Positions 5,101 to 30,942 of a stretch of 64,000 bases of DNA are shown in pieces. The translations under genes were made by a program, and so were the position numbers. The stretch is from Actinomycetes bacterium. GTDB lineage: Bacteria; Actinomycetota; Actinomycetes; S36-B12; UBA5976. The DNA lies in assembly GCA_037137575.1 (NCBI GenBank), contig JBAXKB010000002.1, forward strand, positions 1,833-65,832, in the 5' to 3' direction. Below the pieces are notes generated by a model. That model was not told the origin of the DNA. It was given only the letters and a program-made list of their open reading frames with translations, and made no database searches. Numbering within the stretch: position 1 is the first letter of the stretch; each line of letters opens with the position of its first letter.

Positions 5101-5614
5101 TTTCAAAGTAAACACCAGGTGAGCGAACAAGCTGCGAAACAACTACGCGCTCGGTGCCGTTGATTATGAAAGTGCCCATCTTGGTCATAAGTGGGAAGTC
5201 GCCCATGAATACGGTCTGGCTCTTGATTTCGCCAGTCTCGTTGTTCATGAATTCTGCATTCACATACAGTGGCTGCGAGTAAGTAATGTCTTTATCGCGA
5301 CATTCATCTTCGGTGTACTTCGGATCATCAAAGCCAGGCTCGGTGAAGGTCAACGACATCTGGCCGTTGTAATCCTCGATTGGGCTGATTTCAGAAAATA
5401 CATCTTCAAGACCAGGGGTCTGCGGAATTTCGCTGTTGCCGGATTCAAGTGCAGCAGCCACGCGGGCTTTCCACACATCGTTTCCAAGTAACCAATCGAA
5501 TGATTCCATCTGAAGCGCTAAAAGATTTGGAGCTTCTAGAGGCTCACGAATCTTTGCGAATGAGACCCTCTTTGGGCCAGTGGAACTGCGGGAAGTTGAG
5601 CGCGAGGATGCCAA
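2150..5614 (-). CDS. rpoB: DNA-directed RNA polymerase subunit beta
   Basis: 1154-aa ORF with hallmark RpoB motifs ([46 protein letters not shown]). TTG start at 5614 is preceded by GGAAGGA about 6 nt upstream. Confidence 0.98.
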
Positions 5615-5994
5615 GGGTGTTCCTTCCGAACTGCTAGTGAAGCCATAACAAAGTAGACATAGTCAAATGCACAAAGGCACAAGATTAGTCTGTTTTGGGG
5701 TATGGCGAAGTTACAGCATACCTAGAGGCGGTTGCCGCTGTCCAATGCAGGGAGTTTTTTGCGAAAAACCCTCGATTTTTCGGGCTTTTTCCCTGTGCTG
5801 GACAGCTGATCCAGGTGAAAAGGCCGATTATCATCGGTTTTGCGCAATTCCCGCGTGAGCGTTACCTACAATTCGGGCTAAAAACCCTTATTTTGCAGTG
5901 CTCGATGGGTCTTGCAGTTATCTTGCTTGCTCATCGTTGCCTACTTTCGGGCATCCGTCAAGCACCTAGGCAAGAAATGTTGAGAAGTGGGCAC

Positions 5995-6032
5995 AAAAAA
6001 GTGTGGGCAGATCCAATTGGATCTGCCCACAC
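5995..6032 (-). terminator. Rho-independent terminator/attenuator between rplL and rpoB
   Basis: Perfect 14-bp stem GTGTGGGCAGATCC / GGATCTGCCCACAC (6001-6014 / 6019-6032) with an AATT loop. It is followed on the minus strand by T6 (complement of A5995-6000), 16 nt after the rplL stop. Confidence 0.85.
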
Positions 6033-6047
6033 TTAAAAGTAAATAAA

Positions 6048-6434
6048 TTACTTAAGGGTTACCGTTGCGCCTGCGCCTTCAAGAGATGCCTTGGCTGCCT
6101 CAGCGGCATCCTTTTTGACCTTCTCAAGTACTGGCTGTGGTGCGGCTTCAACTAGGTCCTTTGCTTCTTTCAAACCTAGGTTTGTTAGAGCGCGAACTTC
6201 CTTGATAACGGCAATCTTCTGTGCGCCGCCATTTTCAAGGATGACATCGAATTCATCCTGTTCAGCAGCAGCAGCGCCATCGCCGCCACCGGCTGCAGGC
6301 GCAGCAGCGACAGCAACAGGTGCTGCAGCGGTTACGCCGAAGACTTCTTCGAACTGTGAAACAAATTCTGACAACTCAATGAGAGTCAGTTCTTTAAAGG
6401 CATCGATTAAATCGTCGGTGCTGAGCTTAGCCAT
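6048..6434 (-). CDS. rplL: 50S ribosomal protein L7/L12
   Basis: 128 aa with an Ala/Gly hinge and the C-terminal [24 protein letters not shown] motif. It sits downstream of rplJ. Confidence 0.97.
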
Positions 6435-6485
6435 GATGGCTTCCTTCCAGTCGGGGGCTAGTAGGCCCTTTGTTAGTTGAGGGGC

Positions 6486-7232
6486 CTAGCCCTCGGTCGT
6501 TTCTGCTTCAGCGGGCGCTTCAGCACTTTCTTCTGTTGCAACTTCGGCTACTACCTCATCGGCAGGTGCTTCAGTTGCGTCCGTTGTTACCTCAGCGGGT
6601 GCTTCGGCAACTGTTTCTGTCTCAACGGGTGCTGAGGCAGATTCAACGTTTTCGGTAGCTACATCAGATGCAGCTGGTTCGCTTGAATCAGCAGGTGCGC
6701 TTGCAACTGCTGGTGTTTCTGTTTCGACCTTGGCGCGCAGTGCGTCGACGGTACGAACAACCTGAGATAGCGGAGCCTGGAACAATGCAGCAGCTTTCGC
6801 CAATGCAGCATTCGCAGCGCCAGCCACCTTGGACAACAGAACTTCACGTGATTCAAGTTTGGCTAGCTTCTTGATATCGTCGGCAGTTAGGAATTTTCCA
6901 TCCAAAATGCCGCCCTTGATAACAAGTAGCGGGTTTTGTTTAGCGAAGGTGTCTAAGCCTTTGGCAGCAGCTACTGGGTCGCCTTTAATAAAAGCAATTG
7001 CAGTTGGGCCAACGAGTAAATCGTCGAAACCAACAACTCCAGCATCTTTTGCCGCAATCTTTGACAATGTGTTCTTCACAACGGCGTATGTGGTGTCAGA
7101 TCCAAGAGAACGACGAAGTTCCTTTAGTTGACCCACAGTTAAACCGCGGTACTCGGTCAACACTGCAGCAGATGAAGCACGGAATTCTTCCGTGATTTCT
7201 GCAACTGCAGCGGCCTTGTCAGCGCGTGCCAT
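6486..7232 (-). CDS. rplJ: 50S ribosomal protein L10 with ~78-aa acidic C-terminal extension
   Basis: [43 protein letters not shown] is a typical L10 N-terminus. I chose the ATG at 7232 (AAGGAG 5 nt upstream) rather than the ORF-track start at 7280. The tail is rich in E/A/P/T. Confidence 0.93.
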
Positions 7233-7262
7233 GATGCTCCTTGAATGTCGTGGCACCACAAT

Positions 7263-7292
7263 AAAAAAAGCCCCGCGCAAGTAAGGCGGGGC
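7263..7292 (-). promoter_or_regulatory. Terminator-like hairpin plus T7 inside the rplJ 5' leader (candidate L10-leader attenuator)
   Basis: GC-rich 7-bp stem GCCCCGC / GCGGGGC (7270-7276 / 7286-7292) is followed on the minus strand by TTTTTTT. It lies about 30 nt upstream of the rplJ ATG, and no upstream minus-strand gene exists for it to terminate. Confidence 0.55.
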
Positions 7293-7549
7293 AACACGCT
7301 AAAAGCGTTTCGCTCAATCTGACCTGCGCTGGCGCTCCAGTTGTGGAGCCTTAGCCTCAAGGTTCTTGGTTTCCCAAGTTCCCTTGATGACCGGCGGTCT
7401 TCGGTTTGTTAATAGAACTTTAGGGGGTTCGGGGGTAGCGAGTCAAAACGGCGAAGAAATAACCTGCTATTCGAACCTTTAAACTGAGGTTTCTTCTGGA
7501 TTTCATAAAAATACGCGAGTACAACACAAAATCCACAGGCAAAATCTAT

Positions 7550-7578
7550 TGACATTCCTTTGTCTGACGTTGTTTTAT
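7550..7578 (+). promoter_or_regulatory. Sigma70-like promoter for the 7605-8131 cassette
   Basis: Perfect -35 TTGACA (7550-7555), 17-nt spacer and -10 TTTTAT (7573-7578, 4/6 match). It lies about 27 nt upstream of the ATG at 7605 in an AT-rich intergenic stretch. Confidence 0.5.
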
Positions 7579-7604
7579 AGGTTTGTGCAATTTACTTTGC
7601 TGGA

Positions 7605-7838
7605 ATGCCCAGCAAAGGTATCCGAGTTTTAGCGTCAGCGTTACGCCACGGCATTGCAAAAGCCGACATCTTGCACGCCATTCGATTGCCTTTACGAATA
7701 TTTGATCAGGATGATGGCATTAAGTTCATCATCGGGCCAAGCAGATCCGGCGAACTACTTGAAGTCGCCTTTCGAATTCATGAAGGTGAATTAGTAACTT
7801 TCCACGCTATGCGTGCCCGAGATAAATACCTACGGTGA
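7605..7838 (+). CDS. Small hypothetical protein, candidate toxin of a type II TA-like pair (BrnT/RelE-fold-like by eye)
   Basis: 77-aa ORF. The pattern RHGIAKADILHAI...IIGPSRSGELLEVAF...GELVTFHAMRARDKY resembles small BrnT-type toxins (HGV..ee...; G....G.lL.V......iISAR.A...E...Y). Its stop overlaps the next ORF's start (GTGA). Confidence 0.45.
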   Translation: MPSKGIRVLASALRHGIAKADILHAIRLPLRIFDQDDGIKFIIGPSRSGELLEVAFRIHEGELVTFHAMRARDKYLR

Positions 7839-8131
7839 TAAACATGAAACCAGCAGAAAATGATGATTTTGATTACGAAGCGGCAAGTCAACTTGCATTC
7901 GAATACGAGCTTTCTGACGAAGCAAAGGACGCTATCCGCATATTCTCCACCCTCGAGCTAACTCGAAAAAACATGAAGAAAGCTCAGATTGAACTGGAAG
8001 TTGCTATCAAAGAAGCCTACGATTTCGATCAAGGATGGGGCGCAGTTGCTTCGATGCTTGGAATCGCCGAATCTGAAGCCGAAAATCAATACGGGTCACT
8101 TATAAAGAAGAAACCAAAGAAGTCCGCTTAA
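7835..8131 (+). CDS. Small hypothetical protein, candidate antitoxin partner
   Basis: 98-aa ORF with a GTG at 7835 overlapping the upstream stop (alternative ATG at 7844). It has an acidic N-terminus, a helical middle and a Lys-rich tail (LIKKKPKKSA). No family was recognised. Confidence 0.4.
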   Translation: MINMKPAENDDFDYEAASQLAFEYELSDEAKDAIRIFSTLELTRKNMKKAQIELEVAIKEAYDFDQGWGAVASMLGIAESEAENQYGSLIKKKPKKSA

Positions 8132-25786: not shown

Positions 25787-27037
25787 ATGAACACAATCGC
25801 GCGTCGTTATTTTCAGGACTTGCCCCGTGAGGTCGCAGTCGTTACAGCAATAGCATTTTGTGTCGCACTTGGCTACGGAATTGTTGCTCCAGTTTTACCG
25901 CTATTTGCTGAATCTTTTGGGGTTTCAGCCTTAGCTGCCAGCGCCGTAATTAGTTTGTTTGCCTTCATGAGATTTATTAGTGCTACCCCTTCTGGTTGGC
26001 TCGTTAACAAACTTGGGGAACGTTGGGTTCTTGGAGTTGGACTGAGCATGGTTTCAGTTTCGAGTGCGCTAGCAGGAACCGCCCAAACATATTCTCAATT
26101 ACTTTTTCTACGCGCTGCCGGTGGACTAGGGTCAGCAATGTTCAGTGTTGCGGCAATGTCGCTTCTTTTACATTCAGTTGACCCACAACACCGAGGCCGT
26201 GCGGTCAGCATGTACCAAAGCGGATTCCTGTTTGGCGGCTTAGCAGGACCACTTGTTGGCGGACTAGTTGTGGGAATCAGTATCAGGGCCCCGTTTTTTG
26301 TTTATTCAGGAACTTTGATGCTTGCAGTTTGCACCGCCCTATTCACTCTGCCAAAAATGCCGAAAAAGGCAGAAGATGCGCAATCGCAAGAGTCTGAAGT
26401 TGTAGAAACTATGCAACTTCGGGAAGCACTTTCGTTCCGTGCCTACTGGACTGCAATGACTATCAATCTGGTAACTGGCATGACTAGTTTTGGGCTGCGC
26501 ATGACGTTGATCCCACTATTTGTTCTGGAAGTTCTGCACAAGAGCGCACAGACATCGAGCATTAGCTTTCTAATTTCTAGCGTGATGCAGGCACTGTTGC
26601 TACTGCCAGTTGGTCGAATGATTGATGTTCGAGGTCGTAAGCCAGCACTCGTTGTCGGTTGCACACTGCTGACATCTTCACTGTTGGTGTTAACCGCCTC
26701 ACATGGGCTAGGAACTTTCTACTTAAGCATGATGCTTATGGGAGCAGCTGGTTCATTCTTAGGTGCAACACCATCGGCAATGGTCGGCGACATAGTCAAG
26801 ACACGAAAGGGCGCACAAGTTGTCGGACTGTATCAAATGACCGGAGATCTCGGAATTATTGTTGGACCGATGGTTGCTGGATATTTGAAAGATTCAACGG
26901 GCGGGTACTTTGTGCCGTTTATGGTTTCCGTAGCAGTGTCTGCAGTTGCCTTAGTTATGAGCGCGACGGTGAATGAAACAAAACAGAAAAACTCGGAAGA
27001 GCAAAAGCGCGAGAGTTACGAAACAACATCCTCATAA
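25787..27037 (+). CDS. MFS transporter
   Basis: About 416 aa from the ATG at 25787 with 12 predicted TM helices and the loop motif GRMIDVRGRK. Its 3' end overlaps msrA by 22 nt. Confidence 0.85.
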   Translation: MNTIARRYFQDLPREVAVVTAIAFCVALGYGIVAPVLPLFAESFGVSALAASAVISLFAFMRFISATPSGWLVNKLGERWVLGVGLSMVSVSSALAGTAQTYSQLLFLRAAGGLGSAMFSVAAMSLLLHSVDPQHRGRAVSMYQSGFLFGGLAGPLVGGLVVGISIRAPFFVYSGTLMLAVCTALFTLPKMPKKAEDAQSQESEVVETMQLREALSFRAYWTAMTINLVTGMTSFGLRMTLIPLFVLEVLHKSAQTSSISFLISSVMQALLLLPVGRMIDVRGRKPALVVGCTLLTSSLLVLTASHGLGTFYLSMMLMGAAGSFLGATPSAMVGDIVKTRKGAQVVGLYQMTGDLGIIVGPMVAGYLKDSTGGYFVPFMVSVAVSAVALVMSATVNETKQKNSEEQKRESYETTSS

Positions 27038-27600
27038 GCCGGTAGCGGGTAGCCCGTGTTTGCATGGCAATCATAACCATTGGGATTCTTGATGAGGTAT
27101 TGCTGATGATAATCCTCGGCGTACCAAAACACTTTACCTTCGACGTTTGCAATCTCAGTTGTGATCGGATCTAGGCCACTTTGCACAAGCACTTTTTCGT
27201 AAGCACTCTTGGTTAAATTGACCAACTCAGTTTGCTCGTTTGTTGTCCAATAAACAGCGCTGCGATATTGAGTTCCGATATCGCCACCTTGGCGATTGCC
27301 TTGGGTAGGATCGTGATTTTCCCAAAAGACCTTTAACAAGTCATAAAAATTTACTTCACTTGGTTCGTAGACAACTAAAACAATTTCTGCATGCCCAGTT
27401 GAACCCGTACAAACCAATGGGTAGTTCGGATCTTCAGTAAGGCCACCCATGTAGCCCACCGCGGTTGTGACAACTCCAGGAATAGCCCAAAGTTTTTTCT
27501 CCGCACCCCAGAAACAACCCATGCCAAAATAAATGCGTTCAGATGTATCTGACCATGGACCATGGATGTCACTCGACAGAACTAAATGTTGAGTACTCAT
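27016..27600 (-). CDS. msrA: Peptide-methionine (S)-S-oxide reductase
   Basis: 194 aa with the active-site motif GMGCFWGAEK. AGGAGG lies 8 nt upstream of the ATG. Confidence 0.95.
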   Translation of the reverse strand: MSTQHLVLSSDIHGPWSDTSERIYFGMGCFWGAEKKLWAIPGVVTTAVGYMGGLTEDPNYPLVCTGSTGHAEIVLVVYEPSEVNFYDLLKVFWENHDPTQGNRQGGDIGTQYRSAVYWTTNEQTELVNLTKSAYEKVLVQSGLDPITTEIANVEGKVFWYAEDYHQQYLIKNPNGYDCHANTGYPLPAYEDVVS

Positions 27601-27619
27601 TGTGTTACCTCCTGGTGAG

Positions 27620-27694
27620 TACCCCCGGTGGGACTTGAACCCACACTGGCACGATTTTAAGTCGTGTGCCTCTAACCGATTGGGCTACGGGGGC
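27620..27694 (-). tRNA. Atypical tRNA, anticodon UAA (Leu by anticodon) with class-I-length variable loop
   Basis: Reverse complement GCCCCCGTAGCCCAATCGGTTAGAGGCACACGACTTAAAATCGTGCCAGTGTGGGTTCAAGTCCCACCGGGGGTA. Good cloverleaf with anticodon loop CUUAAAA, a 3-bp Leu-type D stem, T loop UUCAAGU and discriminator A. The variable loop is only CCAGU. Confidence 0.75.
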
Positions 27695-27752
27695 GAGCAT
27701 CTAATCCTGACACGAACCGCATCAACTTACCTAACTGGGGTGATTAGTAGGT

Positions 27753-28682
27753 TTAATCGCCCTGGACTAAGTCGAAAGCGATGCCGTCGAGAATGTCGTG
27801 TTCAGAAACAACAACTTCAGCTAAACCGGTTACCTGCATGATGCGATCAAGTACTAGTGCGCCGCCGCCAATTACATCCACACGTCCTTCGTGCATCGGA
27901 CCAAACTGCGCCCGCTGGGCTCGAGTCATACTAAGCAATTCTTGGGCTACCTGGTGCACTTTGGCCGCGCTGATTCGCGCGCCATGAATTTTTTCGCGAT
28001 CGTAACTGTCTAAGTTCAGAGCAAGAGCCGCAACCGTGGTTACAGAACCAGCTAGTCCGATCAGGCTATTCACTTCATCAATTGAGACAACCAATTTCGC
28101 CGAAGAAATAGCAGCGTCGATATCGCGCGTGGCATCAGCAATTTGTTGCGCAGTGGGTGGGTCGTCATGAAAATGTCTTTCGGTCATGCGAACACAGCCA
28201 ACGTCAGTGCTTATTGCTGCAACTGGCGCAAATTGCCCCACAACAAACTCAGTACTACCGCCACCAATATCAATAACCAAGTACGGCGGATTAGGCGCAT
28301 CCGGCAAATCTGCAAAGCCTGCTGTTGCGCCAAGGAAAGAAAGTCTTGCTTCTTCATCGCCACTAATAACAGTGGGTTCAAAACCAAGCCGATCTTTAAC
28401 CCCAGCAAAAAATTCCGCGCGATTTGAAACATCACGCGATGCACTTGTTGCCACAAATCGGACAAGATCAGGATTATGCTCGCTAATCAATTCGGCGTAA
28501 ACATCAACTGCTGCAAAAGTGCGAGAAAGTGCAGCCTGGGAAAACTCACGAGTTTGATCCACACCTTCACCAAGACGAACAATAATCATGGTACGAACCA
28601 CATCAACAAGTTTGTTGTCAACTACGTCTGCAATTAGGAGCCGAATCGAATTCGTACCGCAATCAATAGCTGCTACTCGCAC
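27753..28682 (-). CDS. Ppx/GppA-family exopolyphosphatase
   Basis: 309 aa. MRVAAIDCGTNSIRLLIADV and DIGGGSTEF are ASKHA-fold phosphatase motifs. It has the conserved position next to DUF501. Confidence 0.88.
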   Translation of the reverse strand: MRVAAIDCGTNSIRLLIADVVDNKLVDVVRTMIIVRLGEGVDQTREFSQAALSRTFAAVDVYAELISEHNPDLVRFVATSASRDVSNRAEFFAGVKDRLGFEPTVISGDEEARLSFLGATAGFADLPDAPNPPYLVIDIGGGSTEFVVGQFAPVAAISTDVGCVRMTERHFHDDPPTAQQIADATRDIDAAISSAKLVVSIDEVNSLIGLAGSVTTVAALALNLDSYDREKIHGARISAAKVHQVAQELLSMTRAQRAQFGPMHEGRVDVIGGGALVLDRIMQVTGLAEVVVSEHDILDGIAFDLVQGD

Positions 28683-29170
28683 TTAGCATCTCCAACACAG
28701 GTAGCGCCGCTGGTCGTATCGCCGAGCATCGCAAGCACTCGGTCCCCTAATGGATTTACCCCTGGCCCAGCAGCCAAAGAATGTCCGACCAAAACGTGCA
28801 GACACTTAACCCGATTAGGCATACCGCCGGCGCTAATTCCGTCGATTTCCGGAACGTCGCCAAGTGCTGTCCGAGTAGCTAAATAATGCTCATGCGCTTT
28901 TTGATATTGCGCTGCAACTTCTGGGTCGGCATCTAGTTCATCTTGCAACTCACGCATAACGCCATTGGCTTCTAATGTGCCAATCGCACCAGTTAGTTTT
29001 GGGCAAGTCAGGTAAAACGTTGTTGGGAAAGGAGTTCCATCTTCGAGCCGTGGCGCAGTAAGAACCACATCTGGTTGCCCACAAGAGCAGCGATGTGCAA
29101 CATCTAAGGCGCCGCGGATAGGCCGACCAAGTTGCGCTTCAATGGCAGCGCGATCCACAGGAGAAATCAC
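28673..29170 (-). CDS. DUF501-domain protein
   Basis: 165 aa with FPTTFYLTCPKL and VKCLHV motifs. It has the conserved eno-ftsB-DUF501-ppx arrangement of actinobacteria. Confidence 0.75.
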   Translation of the reverse strand: MISPVDRAAIEAQLGRPIRGALDVAHRCSCGQPDVVLTAPRLEDGTPFPTTFYLTCPKLTGAIGTLEANGVMRELQDELDADPEVAAQYQKAHEHYLATRTALGDVPEIDGISAGGMPNRVKCLHVLVGHSLAAGPGVNPLGDRVLAMLGDTTSGATCVGDAKCE

Positions 29171-29175
29171 AGAAA

Positions 29176-29607
29176 CTACTTTGACTCAGCTTTATCGTGA
29201 ATGACCAGTGGATCATTTTGCGAATGTGGTTTATCAGCTAACTCAGTACTGTGCCAAAGCTTGCTGTACCAGGGAGATGAATCATTTGGCACTAGCGCGC
29301 CAGGAACTGTTTCAATCGCTATTGAGGTGCCTTGATCAATTACAACTAATCCAATTTCGCCAGGAAAAACATAATTGAGGCGAGAACGGGCTAACGATTG
29401 CAGGTACGCACGGTTTTGCAATTGTTTGGCATCAGCTTTTAGCTGAGAAATCGACTTCTGCTTATCAACGACCTGCGATTTCAAGGTGGAAATGTCTCTG
29501 CGCTCTTTCACCAATGACCGCATTGGCACAGCAATGGTCATAATGATAAACACAGATGCAGTGAGCACTACGAGTGCCCGCCTAGTAGGTTTTAGCGAGG
29601 AAGCCAC
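29176..29607 (-). CDS. Septum formation initiator family protein (FtsB/DivIC-like)
   Basis: 143 aa with an N-terminal TM segment and then a coiled coil (ISTLKSQVVDKQKSISQLKADAKQLQN). It lies directly downstream of eno. Confidence 0.75.
   Translation of the reverse strand: MASSLKPTRRALVVLTASVFIIMTIAVPMRSLVKERRDISTLKSQVVDKQKSISQLKADAKQLQNRAYLQSLARSRLNYVFPGEIGLVVIDQGTSIAIETVPGALVPNDSSPWYSKLWHSTELADKPHSQNDPLVIHDKAESK

Positions 29608-29625: not shown

Positions 29626-30942
<1,317 letters not shown>

Follow-up and report, generated by a model that had tools for sequence, protein, structure and literature searches.

A 75-nt gene on the minus strand of the 64,000-nt stretch of actinobacterial DNA analysed here (the window) is very probably a normal, vertically inherited tRNA-Leu(UAA), the UUA/UUG decoder of its host, made with the short variable loop of a class I tRNA. 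Genes of this kind are known already, being annotated in all mycobacterial genomes, and the family includes a biochemically characterised member with anticodon CAA. A preliminary description of the locus had taken every bacterial tRNA-Leu to be class II and a short arm to be unusual outside organelles, and it had set three options side by side, namely a functional short-arm tRNA-Leu, a decaying tRNA gene and a tRNA-like element with another role. Both generalisations fail in Actinomycetota, where the short UAA form occurs in most of the orders sampled and is the sole UAA form of mycobacteria, and where the CAA form of Streptomyces coelicolor has been studied in vitro. Since the short form is normal for this phylum, Mycobacterium tuberculosis included, the window gene is an ordinary one. 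Of the three options the first held up, and we infer the function of the gene from a phylum-wide family, from covariation and from a family-specific covariance score. The positions of the gene, its defining parts and its neighbours are collected in Table 1.

Table 1. The tRNA gene of the window, its diagnostic parts and the genes around it.
Feature	Position	Strand	Basis or remark
Class I tRNA-Leu(UAA) gene, short variable loop	27620..27694	-	ARAGORN, Rfam RF00005, covariance model R1, relatives' copies
Anticodon UAA, tRNA positions 34-36, in loop CUUAAAA	27657..27659	-	ARAGORN (anticodon at sequence position 36) and direct read
Variable loop CCAGU, 5 nt, positions 44-48; class I-defining	27645..27649	-	Sequence
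Spacer, 58 nt, ppx stop codon to tRNA 5′ end	27695..27752	-	Alignment of window, L001, L005 and L009
ppx, exopolyphosphatase family, last gene of eno-divIC-DUF501-ppx block	27753..28682	-	NCBIfam TIGR03706, 5.3e-69, below curated cut-off
DUF501	28673-29170	-	Upstream of tRNA
divIC-like	29176-29607	-	Upstream of tRNA
eno	29626-30918	-	Upstream of tRNA
msrA	27016..27600	-	NCBIfam TIGR00401, 3e-58

Direct reading of the minus strand at 27620-27694 gives GCCCCCGUAGCCCAAUCGGUUAGAGGCACACGACUUAAAAUCGUGCCAGUGUGGGUUCAAGUCCCACCGGGGGUA, which runs over 75 nt from position 1 to the discriminator A73. The stems, loops and anticodon that the preliminary description had listed are those found in the sequence: an acceptor stem GCCCCCG/CGGGGGU that includes a G1:U72 pair, then U8 A9 and a 3-bp D stem (GCC/GGC), an anticodon stem CACGA/UCGUG closed by a 7-nt loop with U33, A37 and a YAA anticodon of the Leu type, and the T arm GUGGG-UUCAAGU-CCCAC. 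ARAGORN, one of the checks proposed for the locus, called a tRNA-Leu(taa) at 27619-27694. The Rfam model RF00005 was fully matched (model positions 1-71) at 60.2 bits (E 1.5e-10), the gathering score being 29. This alignment carried no insertion in the variable region, and its single non-standard pair was 13:22 in the D stem. Because the variable region consists of 5 nt, the gene specifies a class I tRNA bearing a leucine anticodon, and it falls short of canonical class II in both variable arm (>10 nt) and total length (about 85-89 nt). Single-sequence folding gave -31.5 kcal/mol with z = -3.35, and none of 200 shuffles folded equally well. The minimum-free-energy fold retains the acceptor and T stems and differs from the cloverleaf, so that the cloverleaf is taken from ARAGORN, Rfam and the family covariation described below, not from that fold. 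The tRNA also has U8:A14, G18G19 with U55C56, U54:A58 and A73, and A15 is able to pair with U48, the last nucleotide of the variable loop. The window locus is a real tRNA, far beyond chance.

Membership of the family was analysed with a covariance model, R1, for which 30 class I tRNA-Leu sequences were taken from actinobacterial orders other than that of the window, whose lineage was excluded. The model scored the window tRNA at 87.6 bits (E 1.7e-21), the tRNA-Trp of the window at 53.9 bits and its tRNA-Gln at 42 bits. Pairwise identities were 80% to the tRNA-Leu(UAA) of M. tuberculosis and of M. smegmatis, 71-78% to class I tRNA-Leu(CAA) genes (74% for those of Streptomyces), 54-58% to class II tRNA-Leu from M. 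tuberculosis, and 53-62% to its tRNA-Ile, tRNA-Lys and tRNA-His. Covariation was then scored on the window cloverleaf in an alignment of 98 distinct class I tRNA-Leu family sequences, in which the variable region is gap-free between the window tRNA and the 97 others. Paired nucleotides occupied 98.6% of the pair cells versus 76.3% in shuffles, and both-sided changes were present in 16 of 20 pairs, the two T-stem pairs fixed by the search pattern (see below) being uninformative on covariation. The covariation score was 0.578, versus 0.150 for shuffles (0 of 500 reached 0.578) and at most 0.098 when the partners were slid. In the family alignments U8 and A14 were invariant and A15, G18, G19, U48 and A73 invariant or nearly so; the search pattern itself imposed CAG at 45-47 and U54, U55, C56 and A58, so that these positions are no evidence of conservation. 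The window copy departs from the family consensus in G1:U72 (a pair found in 17 of the 98 sequences), in an extra D-loop U and in A57, which replaces G57. These data place the window tRNA under strong structural selection, and the gene shows every testable feature of the actinobacterial class I tRNA-Leu family.

Close relatives of the window were represented by the loci around Ppx orthologs of 89%, 75% and 71% identity, the best Ppx matches being uncultured metagenomic proteins, of which one carries the label 'MAG: Actinobacteria bacterium'. All of the relatives' loci long enough to span the site have a tRNA-Leu(taa) of 76-78 nt directly after ppx. The tRNA itself is identical in L001, L003 and L005, where Ppx identity is 75-89%. 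Alignment of the orthologous loci, which had been suggested as a way to find compensatory changes, revealed two of them in L009, C6:G67 to U:A and G51:C63 to C:G; this ortholog encodes its CCA, unlike the window gene. The same tRNA as in L009 is present in L120, a 'Candidatus Nanopelagicales' MAG, Nanopelagicales being an order of Actinomycetes. The mycothiol gene of the window and its protein matches indicate Actinomycetota, and the host is most likely an uncultured freshwater actinobacterium of the Nanopelagicales type.

These comparisons bear directly on the option of a decaying gene, in which the locus would be either an assembly artefact or a once long-armed tRNA-Leu(UAA) whose arm disappeared recently, with no function in either case. 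The length below that of the textbook bacterial tRNA-Leu, the G1:U72 wobble and the non-standard 13:22 pair could be read in this way, yet the probability of decay is practically negligible when set against an identical short gene in independent metagenome assemblies of different samples, a short form common to the whole phylum, stems maintained by compensatory changes, and high scores with both the generic and the family-specific model. None of the relatives examined has a long-arm gene at the site, and there is no trace of the recent deletion that the preliminary description had considered. A recent deletion or artefact is ruled out by the recurrence of the same short gene in independent assemblies and across the phylum, and a tRNA pseudogene by the intact stems, by the scores of 60.2 and 87.6 bits and by purifying selection among the relatives.

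Within mycobacteria, tRNAscan-SE assigns as tRNA-Leu(UAA) the M. tuberculosis gene trna12 (1177396-1177469, 74 bp, score 63.13) and the M. smegmatis mc2 155 gene trna34 (74 bp, 63.84). Like the window gene, they have a 5-nt variable loop, a CUUAAAA anticodon loop, an acceptor strand GCCCCC(G/A), a 3-bp D stem and A73. They differ from it by a G1:C72 pair in place of G1:U72, a D loop GGCAGA that is one U shorter than the GGUUAGA of the window, a T loop UUCGAGU instead of UUCAAGU, and a variable loop CAAGU instead of CCAGU. The genome of the window gene also sets it apart from the mycobacterial genes, with a GC content of about 48% and frequent use of UUA. The window gene is orthologous to the short tRNA-Leu(UAA) of other Actinomycetota.

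The meaning of the codons was addressed with six housekeeping genes of the window, whose 240 Leu codons comprise 41 TTA and 59 TTG. In alignments with orthologs drawn from 48 further loci, leucine stood opposite 72% of the TTA sites, 75% of the TTG sites and 76.5% of the CTN sites, and the ortholog leucines facing TTA or TTG were mostly encoded by CTC, CTT or CTG. Since TTA and TTG align with leucine as CTN does, UUA and UUG mean leucine in the window genome and a tRNA-Leu with a UAA anticodon is needed. No sign of UUA recoding was found in this codon comparison of six window genes across 48 loci.

A class I tRNA of non-leucine identity that carries a Leu anticodon, and so recodes or mistranslates UUA/UUG, would fit the class I architecture that most non-Leu tRNAs have in common. 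Its D loop GGUUAGAG and T loop UUCAAGU resemble those of some tRNA-Ile genes such as the tRNA-Ile of Escherichia coli, and Streptomyces provides an analogy in its anticodon-mismatched tRNA-Pro variants. However, TTA and TTG align with leucine in orthologs as often as CTN, the identity of 53-62% to the Ile, Lys and His tRNAs of M. tuberculosis compares with 80% to its tRNA-Leu(UAA), the mycobacterial orthologs are typed Leu by tRNAscan-SE, and LeuRS leucylates the type I relative of Streptomyces; a non-leucine identity is extremely unlikely.

The S. coelicolor tRNA-Leu(CAA) is the sole family member for which we found charging data. This type I tRNA, whose 5-nt variable loop is ACAGC, is leucylated in vitro by S. 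coelicolor LeuRS with a kcat/Km of 6.25 s-1 µM-1, good charging needs at least five variable-loop nucleotides, and attempts to delete its gene were unsuccessful (Fan, Huang, Ji and Wang, Nucleic Acids Res 2019, PMC6614811). E. coli LeuRS is unable to charge the Streptomyces type I tRNA, so that charging requires a compatible enzyme; human mitochondrial LeuRS charges both tRNA-Leu types of S. coelicolor, and the human mitochondrial tRNA-Leu(UUR) is not charged by S. coelicolor LeuRS (PMC6614811). The elements U8:A14, A15:U48, G18G19/U55C56, U54:A58 and A73 were described in the same work as those of tRNA-Leu that are important for LeuRS (PMC6614811). The S. coelicolor tRNA shares with that of the window the CAG at 45-47, the cloverleaf, the acceptor-stem type and a host from Actinomycetota. 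It reads only UUG with its anticodon CAA and is encoded at a different genomic position, and the charging precedent therefore comes from a CAA isoacceptor, whereas the window gene is a UAA isoacceptor.

By analogy with the S. coelicolor enzymology, the host LeuRS would leucylate the window tRNA without a long variable arm, and recognition would depend on U8:A14, A15:U48, the G18G19/U55C56 elbow, U54:A58, the 5-nt variable loop and A73-CCA; leucine facing UUA and UUG in orthologs supports such leucylation indirectly. Before this step the gene would be transcribed and the ends of the transcript processed, as both established tRNA biology and PMC6614811 lead one to expect. The CCA would be added enzymatically because it is absent from the gene, whose 3′ trailer is CUC. 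Once charged, the tRNA would read UUA and, through U34 wobble, UUG as leucine, and it is presumably the only UAA isoacceptor of the source genome.

Two other types of tRNA-Leu with the same anticodon delimit the window tRNA. Canonical class II tRNA-Leu(UAA), represented by the E. coli tRNA employed in PMC6614811 or by the bldA tRNA, has in common with it the anticodon, the decoding role, A73, U8:A14, A15:U48, G18G19 and the 3-bp D stem, but carries a variable stem-loop of 13-17 nt and measures about 85-87 nt. The UAA isoacceptor of Streptomyces, bldA, is of this long-arm class, and the two classes share the work differently there. The human mitochondrial tRNA-Leu(UUR) resembles the window tRNA in being class I and in reading UUR through a UAA anticodon; it differs in being organellar and structurally relaxed.

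Downstream of the tRNA, the window contains msrA, a convergent MFS transporter gene, a DrrA/DrrB-like ABC-2 exporter, greA and mca (mycothiol amidase). The preliminary description had seen a synteny break at the tRNA. In the lineage of the window this does not apply: the order ppx-tRNA-msrA-MFS-ABC-greA-DUF4307-mca is the same in the window and in its close relatives (71-89% Ppx identity), and since it is kept there is no break. Only at the scale of the phylum does the tRNA mark a boundary, in that the conserved eno-ppx-tRNA block stops there and the genes 3′ of it vary between orders. An island boundary at the tRNA is likewise ruled out for the lineage, as the order of msrA, MFS, ABC-2, greA and mca is kept and GC content is flat, at 46-51% across the window.

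The ATG of msrA, at 27600, begins 19 nt past the tRNA on the same strand with an AGGAGG ahead of it, exactly as had been noted, and the tRNA and msrA are possibly co-transcribed. L001 and L005 likewise have msrA directly after the tRNA. A BaxI-family gene intervenes between the two in L009 (as does a PALP-family gene between the MFS and ABC-transporter genes); because another gene splits the tRNA from msrA in both L009 and L120, the linkage with msrA is not conserved. On the other side of the tRNA, the 58-nt spacer retains two blocks in close relatives, CCCCAGTTAGG and CGTGTCAGGATTAGATGCTC, and is a possible promoter or processing region. A simple consensus scan found neither a sigma-70 consensus promoter nor an intrinsic terminator beside the tRNA gene, and no integrase gene is present among its neighbours.

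The close spacing to msrA is one of two observations that could be explained by a tRNA-like element with a non-translational role, be it an att-site remnant, a signal that directs msrA mRNA processing or a non-ribosomal aminoacyl donor; the other is that isolated 3′ halves of tRNA-Leu(UAA) exist in other Actinomycetota, one of them beside an integrase gene. Such an element is nevertheless very unlikely here. The window copy is full length, with four stems and the conserved tertiary positions, it has no integrase nearby and lies in DNA of flat composition, the genes downstream are conserved in relatives while the msrA linkage is broken in L009 and L120, and UUA, a frequent Leu codon, needs a decoder. 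An att-site fragment in particular is ruled out, given that the window copy, with no neighbouring integrase, is unlike true 3′-half fragments. The gene may have a secondary role besides decoding, although nothing requires one.

We then turned to the occurrence of short-arm tRNA-Leu in other bacteria. In M. tuberculosis H37Rv the tRNAscan-SE lengths are 74 nt for tRNA-Leu(CAA), 74 for UAA, 86 for CAG and 89 for GAG, and 84 bp for UAG (87 with CCA); in M. smegmatis the same five anticodons have 74 (CAA), 74 (UAA), 83 (CAG), 86 (GAG) and 87 (UAG) (PMC11541572 supplement). Long variable loops are limited to tRNA-Leu-2, -3 and -5 in the account given there (PMC11541572 main text). As each of the two mycobacteria has one UAA gene, of 74 nt, the sole UAA isoacceptor of M. 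tuberculosis and of M. smegmatis is short-armed. A wider view was obtained by scanning one genome per species, for 185,579 species, with a pattern that required CAG at 45-47 within a variable loop of 5 nt, together with a YAA anticodon loop and the T arm GGTTCRANTCC; the resulting counts describe a sample, not a census, and the CAG requirement misses the M. tuberculosis and M. smegmatis genes, whose loop is CAAGU. At least 114 of at least 120 matched loci hold a tRNA-Leu of 73-79 nt (at least 86 UAA and at least 28 CAA), and at least 98 of these 114 or more come from Actinomycetota, across most of its orders.

Among the matches listed, the UAA form was present in Mycobacterium, Mycolicibacterium, Nocardia, Rhodococcus, Gordonia, Williamsia, Tsukamurella, Dietzia and Corynebacterium, as well as in Arthrobacter, Microbacterium, Herbiconiux, Leucobacter, Nocardioides, Actinomyces, Arcanobacterium, Oerskovia, Acidimicrobiia and Nanopelagicales; the CAA form, among the same matches, was present in Streptomyces, Streptacidiphilus, Nonomuraea, Streptosporangium, Bifidobacterium and others. 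The UUR-reading leucine tRNAs of Actinomycetota are a short-arm (class I/type I) lineage. Beyond this phylum, the matches listed include short-arm tRNA-Leu(UAA) in at least five Planctomycetota MAGs (Phycisphaerae among them), at least three MAGs of the Rokubacteria/Methylomirabilia type and at least two of Chloroflexota, in single MAGs of Flavobacteriaceae, Christensenellaceae, Magnetococcales and Parvularcula, and a CAA form in at least one further Chloroflexota MAG. We lean slightly towards the view that the short-arm tRNA-Leu(UAA/CAA) family is much broader than the literature says, extending throughout Actinomycetota and into several other phyla. Should the cases outside Actinomycetota prove real, with binning errors excluded, arm-independent recognition by LeuRS would be an ancient trait found widely among Bacteria.

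The breadth of the family seems under-reported. The S. coelicolor study called the coexistence of type I and type II a first, gave type II as the form of nearly all prokaryotic tRNA-Leu and described the recognition mechanism as "rare" (PMC6614811). The short-loop tRNA-Leu(TAG) reported in a mycobacterial comparative paper belongs to an accessory tRNA cluster and is distinct from the type found in the window. Our literature search for a phylum-wide account of short-arm tRNA-Leu returned just the S. coelicolor study and implicit tables, and two large reviews, on tRNA identity and on non-canonical tRNAs, do not mention the short form. In reviews, bacterial tRNA-Leu is still said to have a long arm universally, while the published M. 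tuberculosis tables show two short-arm genes. The window locus itself matters little, and routine pipelines annotate its gene as tRNA-Leu. What follows from the survey is that the rule "bacterial tRNA-Leu always class II" is unfit as an anomaly filter in Actinomycetota, and perhaps also in Planctomycetota, Methylomirabilota and Chloroflexota, groups in which a UUR-reading tRNA-Leu normally has 73-78 nt and a 5-nt variable loop.

The scanned loci were also compared for gene order. Among the matches listed, 71 UAA loci are actinobacterial, and 37 of them have one or more of eno, DUF501 and ppx upstream of the tRNA on its own strand, with ppx itself in 27; the loci are fixed 8-kb blocks, and the UAA loci without any of the three genes are mostly uninformative. 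Proximity to eno-ppx was seen in 0 CAA loci among the matches listed. The tRNA-Leu(UAA) follows eno-DUF501-ppx, as in the window, in the Mycobacteriaceae MAGs L051 and L062, and the arrangement eno-divIC-DUF501-ppx-tRNA was also observed in Corynebacterium, Rhodococcus, Dietzia, Nocardia, Nakamurella, Actinomyces, Nocardioides and others. The presence of eno, DUF501 and ppx upstream across orders indicates that ppx and the tRNA were already adjacent in the ancestor of the class Actinomycetes, and by position too the window gene is the ortholog. Separately, isolated duplicates of the tRNA-Leu(UAA) 3′ half were seen in five loci of other Actinomycetota (L038, L053, L056, L081 and L111), with an integrase gene directly adjacent in L111 alone.

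An identical 74-nt class I tRNA-Leu(CAA) was common to four low-GC freshwater actinobacterial MAGs (L019, L035, L043 and L045), one of which, L043, is labelled Nanopelagicales. Therefore, the lineage of the window probably has both UUR-reading tRNA-Leu genes as short-arm forms, the two having been seen in separate MAGs, and would in this be like M. tuberculosis, in which both UUR-reading genes are short-arm. The tRNA-Leu(UAA) loci of M. tuberculosis (1177396-1177469) and M. smegmatis (5458911-5458984; PMC11541572 supplement) were missed by the pattern scan because their variable loop is CAAGU and the pattern demanded CAG at positions 45-47. The scan, which gave at least 120 matching loci and passed over members without CAG, thus undercounts the short-arm family.

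Among the scan loci listed, MAGs labelled as phyla other than Actinomycetota also carry a short-arm tRNA-Leu (see the table), with anticodon UAA in all but one Chloroflexota-labelled locus. These genes have acceptor-stem sequences of their own, such as GCUGGUG in three Rokubacteria-type MAGs. One further locus, L113 (labelled Prochlorococcaceae, GC 71%), is probably mis-binned. No description of this breadth across phyla was found in the literature searched.

In five scan loci, the 3′ half of the short-arm tRNA-Leu(UAA) stands alone, without a 5′ half; it begins at the anticodon loop and extends to the 3′ end. When an element integrates into the tRNA-Leu(UAA) gene, the att-site duplication that it leaves behind has this signature. 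In the Nocardioides locus L111, a tyrosine-recombinase ORF (5558-6814; PF00589, 2.9e-17) directly adjoins the fragment, and the fragments of the other four loci adjoin metabolic genes resembling the cargo of an island.

Features of the tRNA-Leu loci (MAG groups as labelled)
Feature	Locus and position	Strand	Remark
tRNA-Leu(UAA) 3′ half	L038 3818-3847 and 7010-7039	-
tRNA-Leu(UAA) 3′ half	L053 3581-3610	-
tRNA-Leu(UAA) 3′ half	L056 5070-5099	+
tRNA-Leu(UAA) 3′ half	L081 1516-1545	+
tRNA-Leu(UAA) 3′ half	L111 5471-5500	-
ppx-tRNA spacer	window 27695-27752		blocks CCCCAGTTAGG and CGTGTCAGGATTAGATGCTC conserved in L001 and L005
Short-arm tRNA-Leu(UAA)	L017, L037, L048, L064, L067		Planctomycetota/Phycisphaerae
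Short-arm tRNA-Leu(UAA)	L041, L122, L060		Rokubacteria/Methylomirabilia type
Short-arm tRNA-Leu	L030 (CAA), L112 (UAA), L124 (UAA)		Chloroflexota
Short-arm tRNA-Leu(UAA)	L085, L022, L108, L087		further MAGs outside Actinomycetota

The 3′ CCA is absent from the tRNA gene of the window (trailer at 27617-27619) and from those of the close relatives L001 and L005, where the trailer is CUC or CAG, but is encoded (ACCA) in the relative L009 (7136-7139) and in the 'Candidatus Nanopelagicales' MAG locus L120; CCA encoding therefore varies within the lineage. On the 5′ side, block CGTGTCAGGATTAGATGCTC of the ppx-tRNA spacer ends where the tRNA gene starts. A search of this spacer for a sigma-70 consensus promoter gave no hit. 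Its conserved blocks might be a signal for processing or an actinobacterial promoter that departs from the consensus.

L009 has two inserted genes. One (7222-7980) encodes a BaxI/Bax1-I family membrane protein and separates the tRNA from msrA; the other, of the PALP family, separates the MFS gene from the ABC-transporter genes. Given the first insertion and the arrangement in L120, where msrA is likewise ~0.9 kb away from the tRNA with another gene in between, the short distance from the tRNA to msrA in the window is not a conserved feature. At their 3′ ends, msrA (-) and the MFS transporter ORF (+) share 22 nt (window 27016-27037), as they do in L001 and L005, and an overlap of 10 nt (window 28673-28682) joins the ORFs of DUF501 and ppx. 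Such close packing of genes is typical of streamlined genomes.
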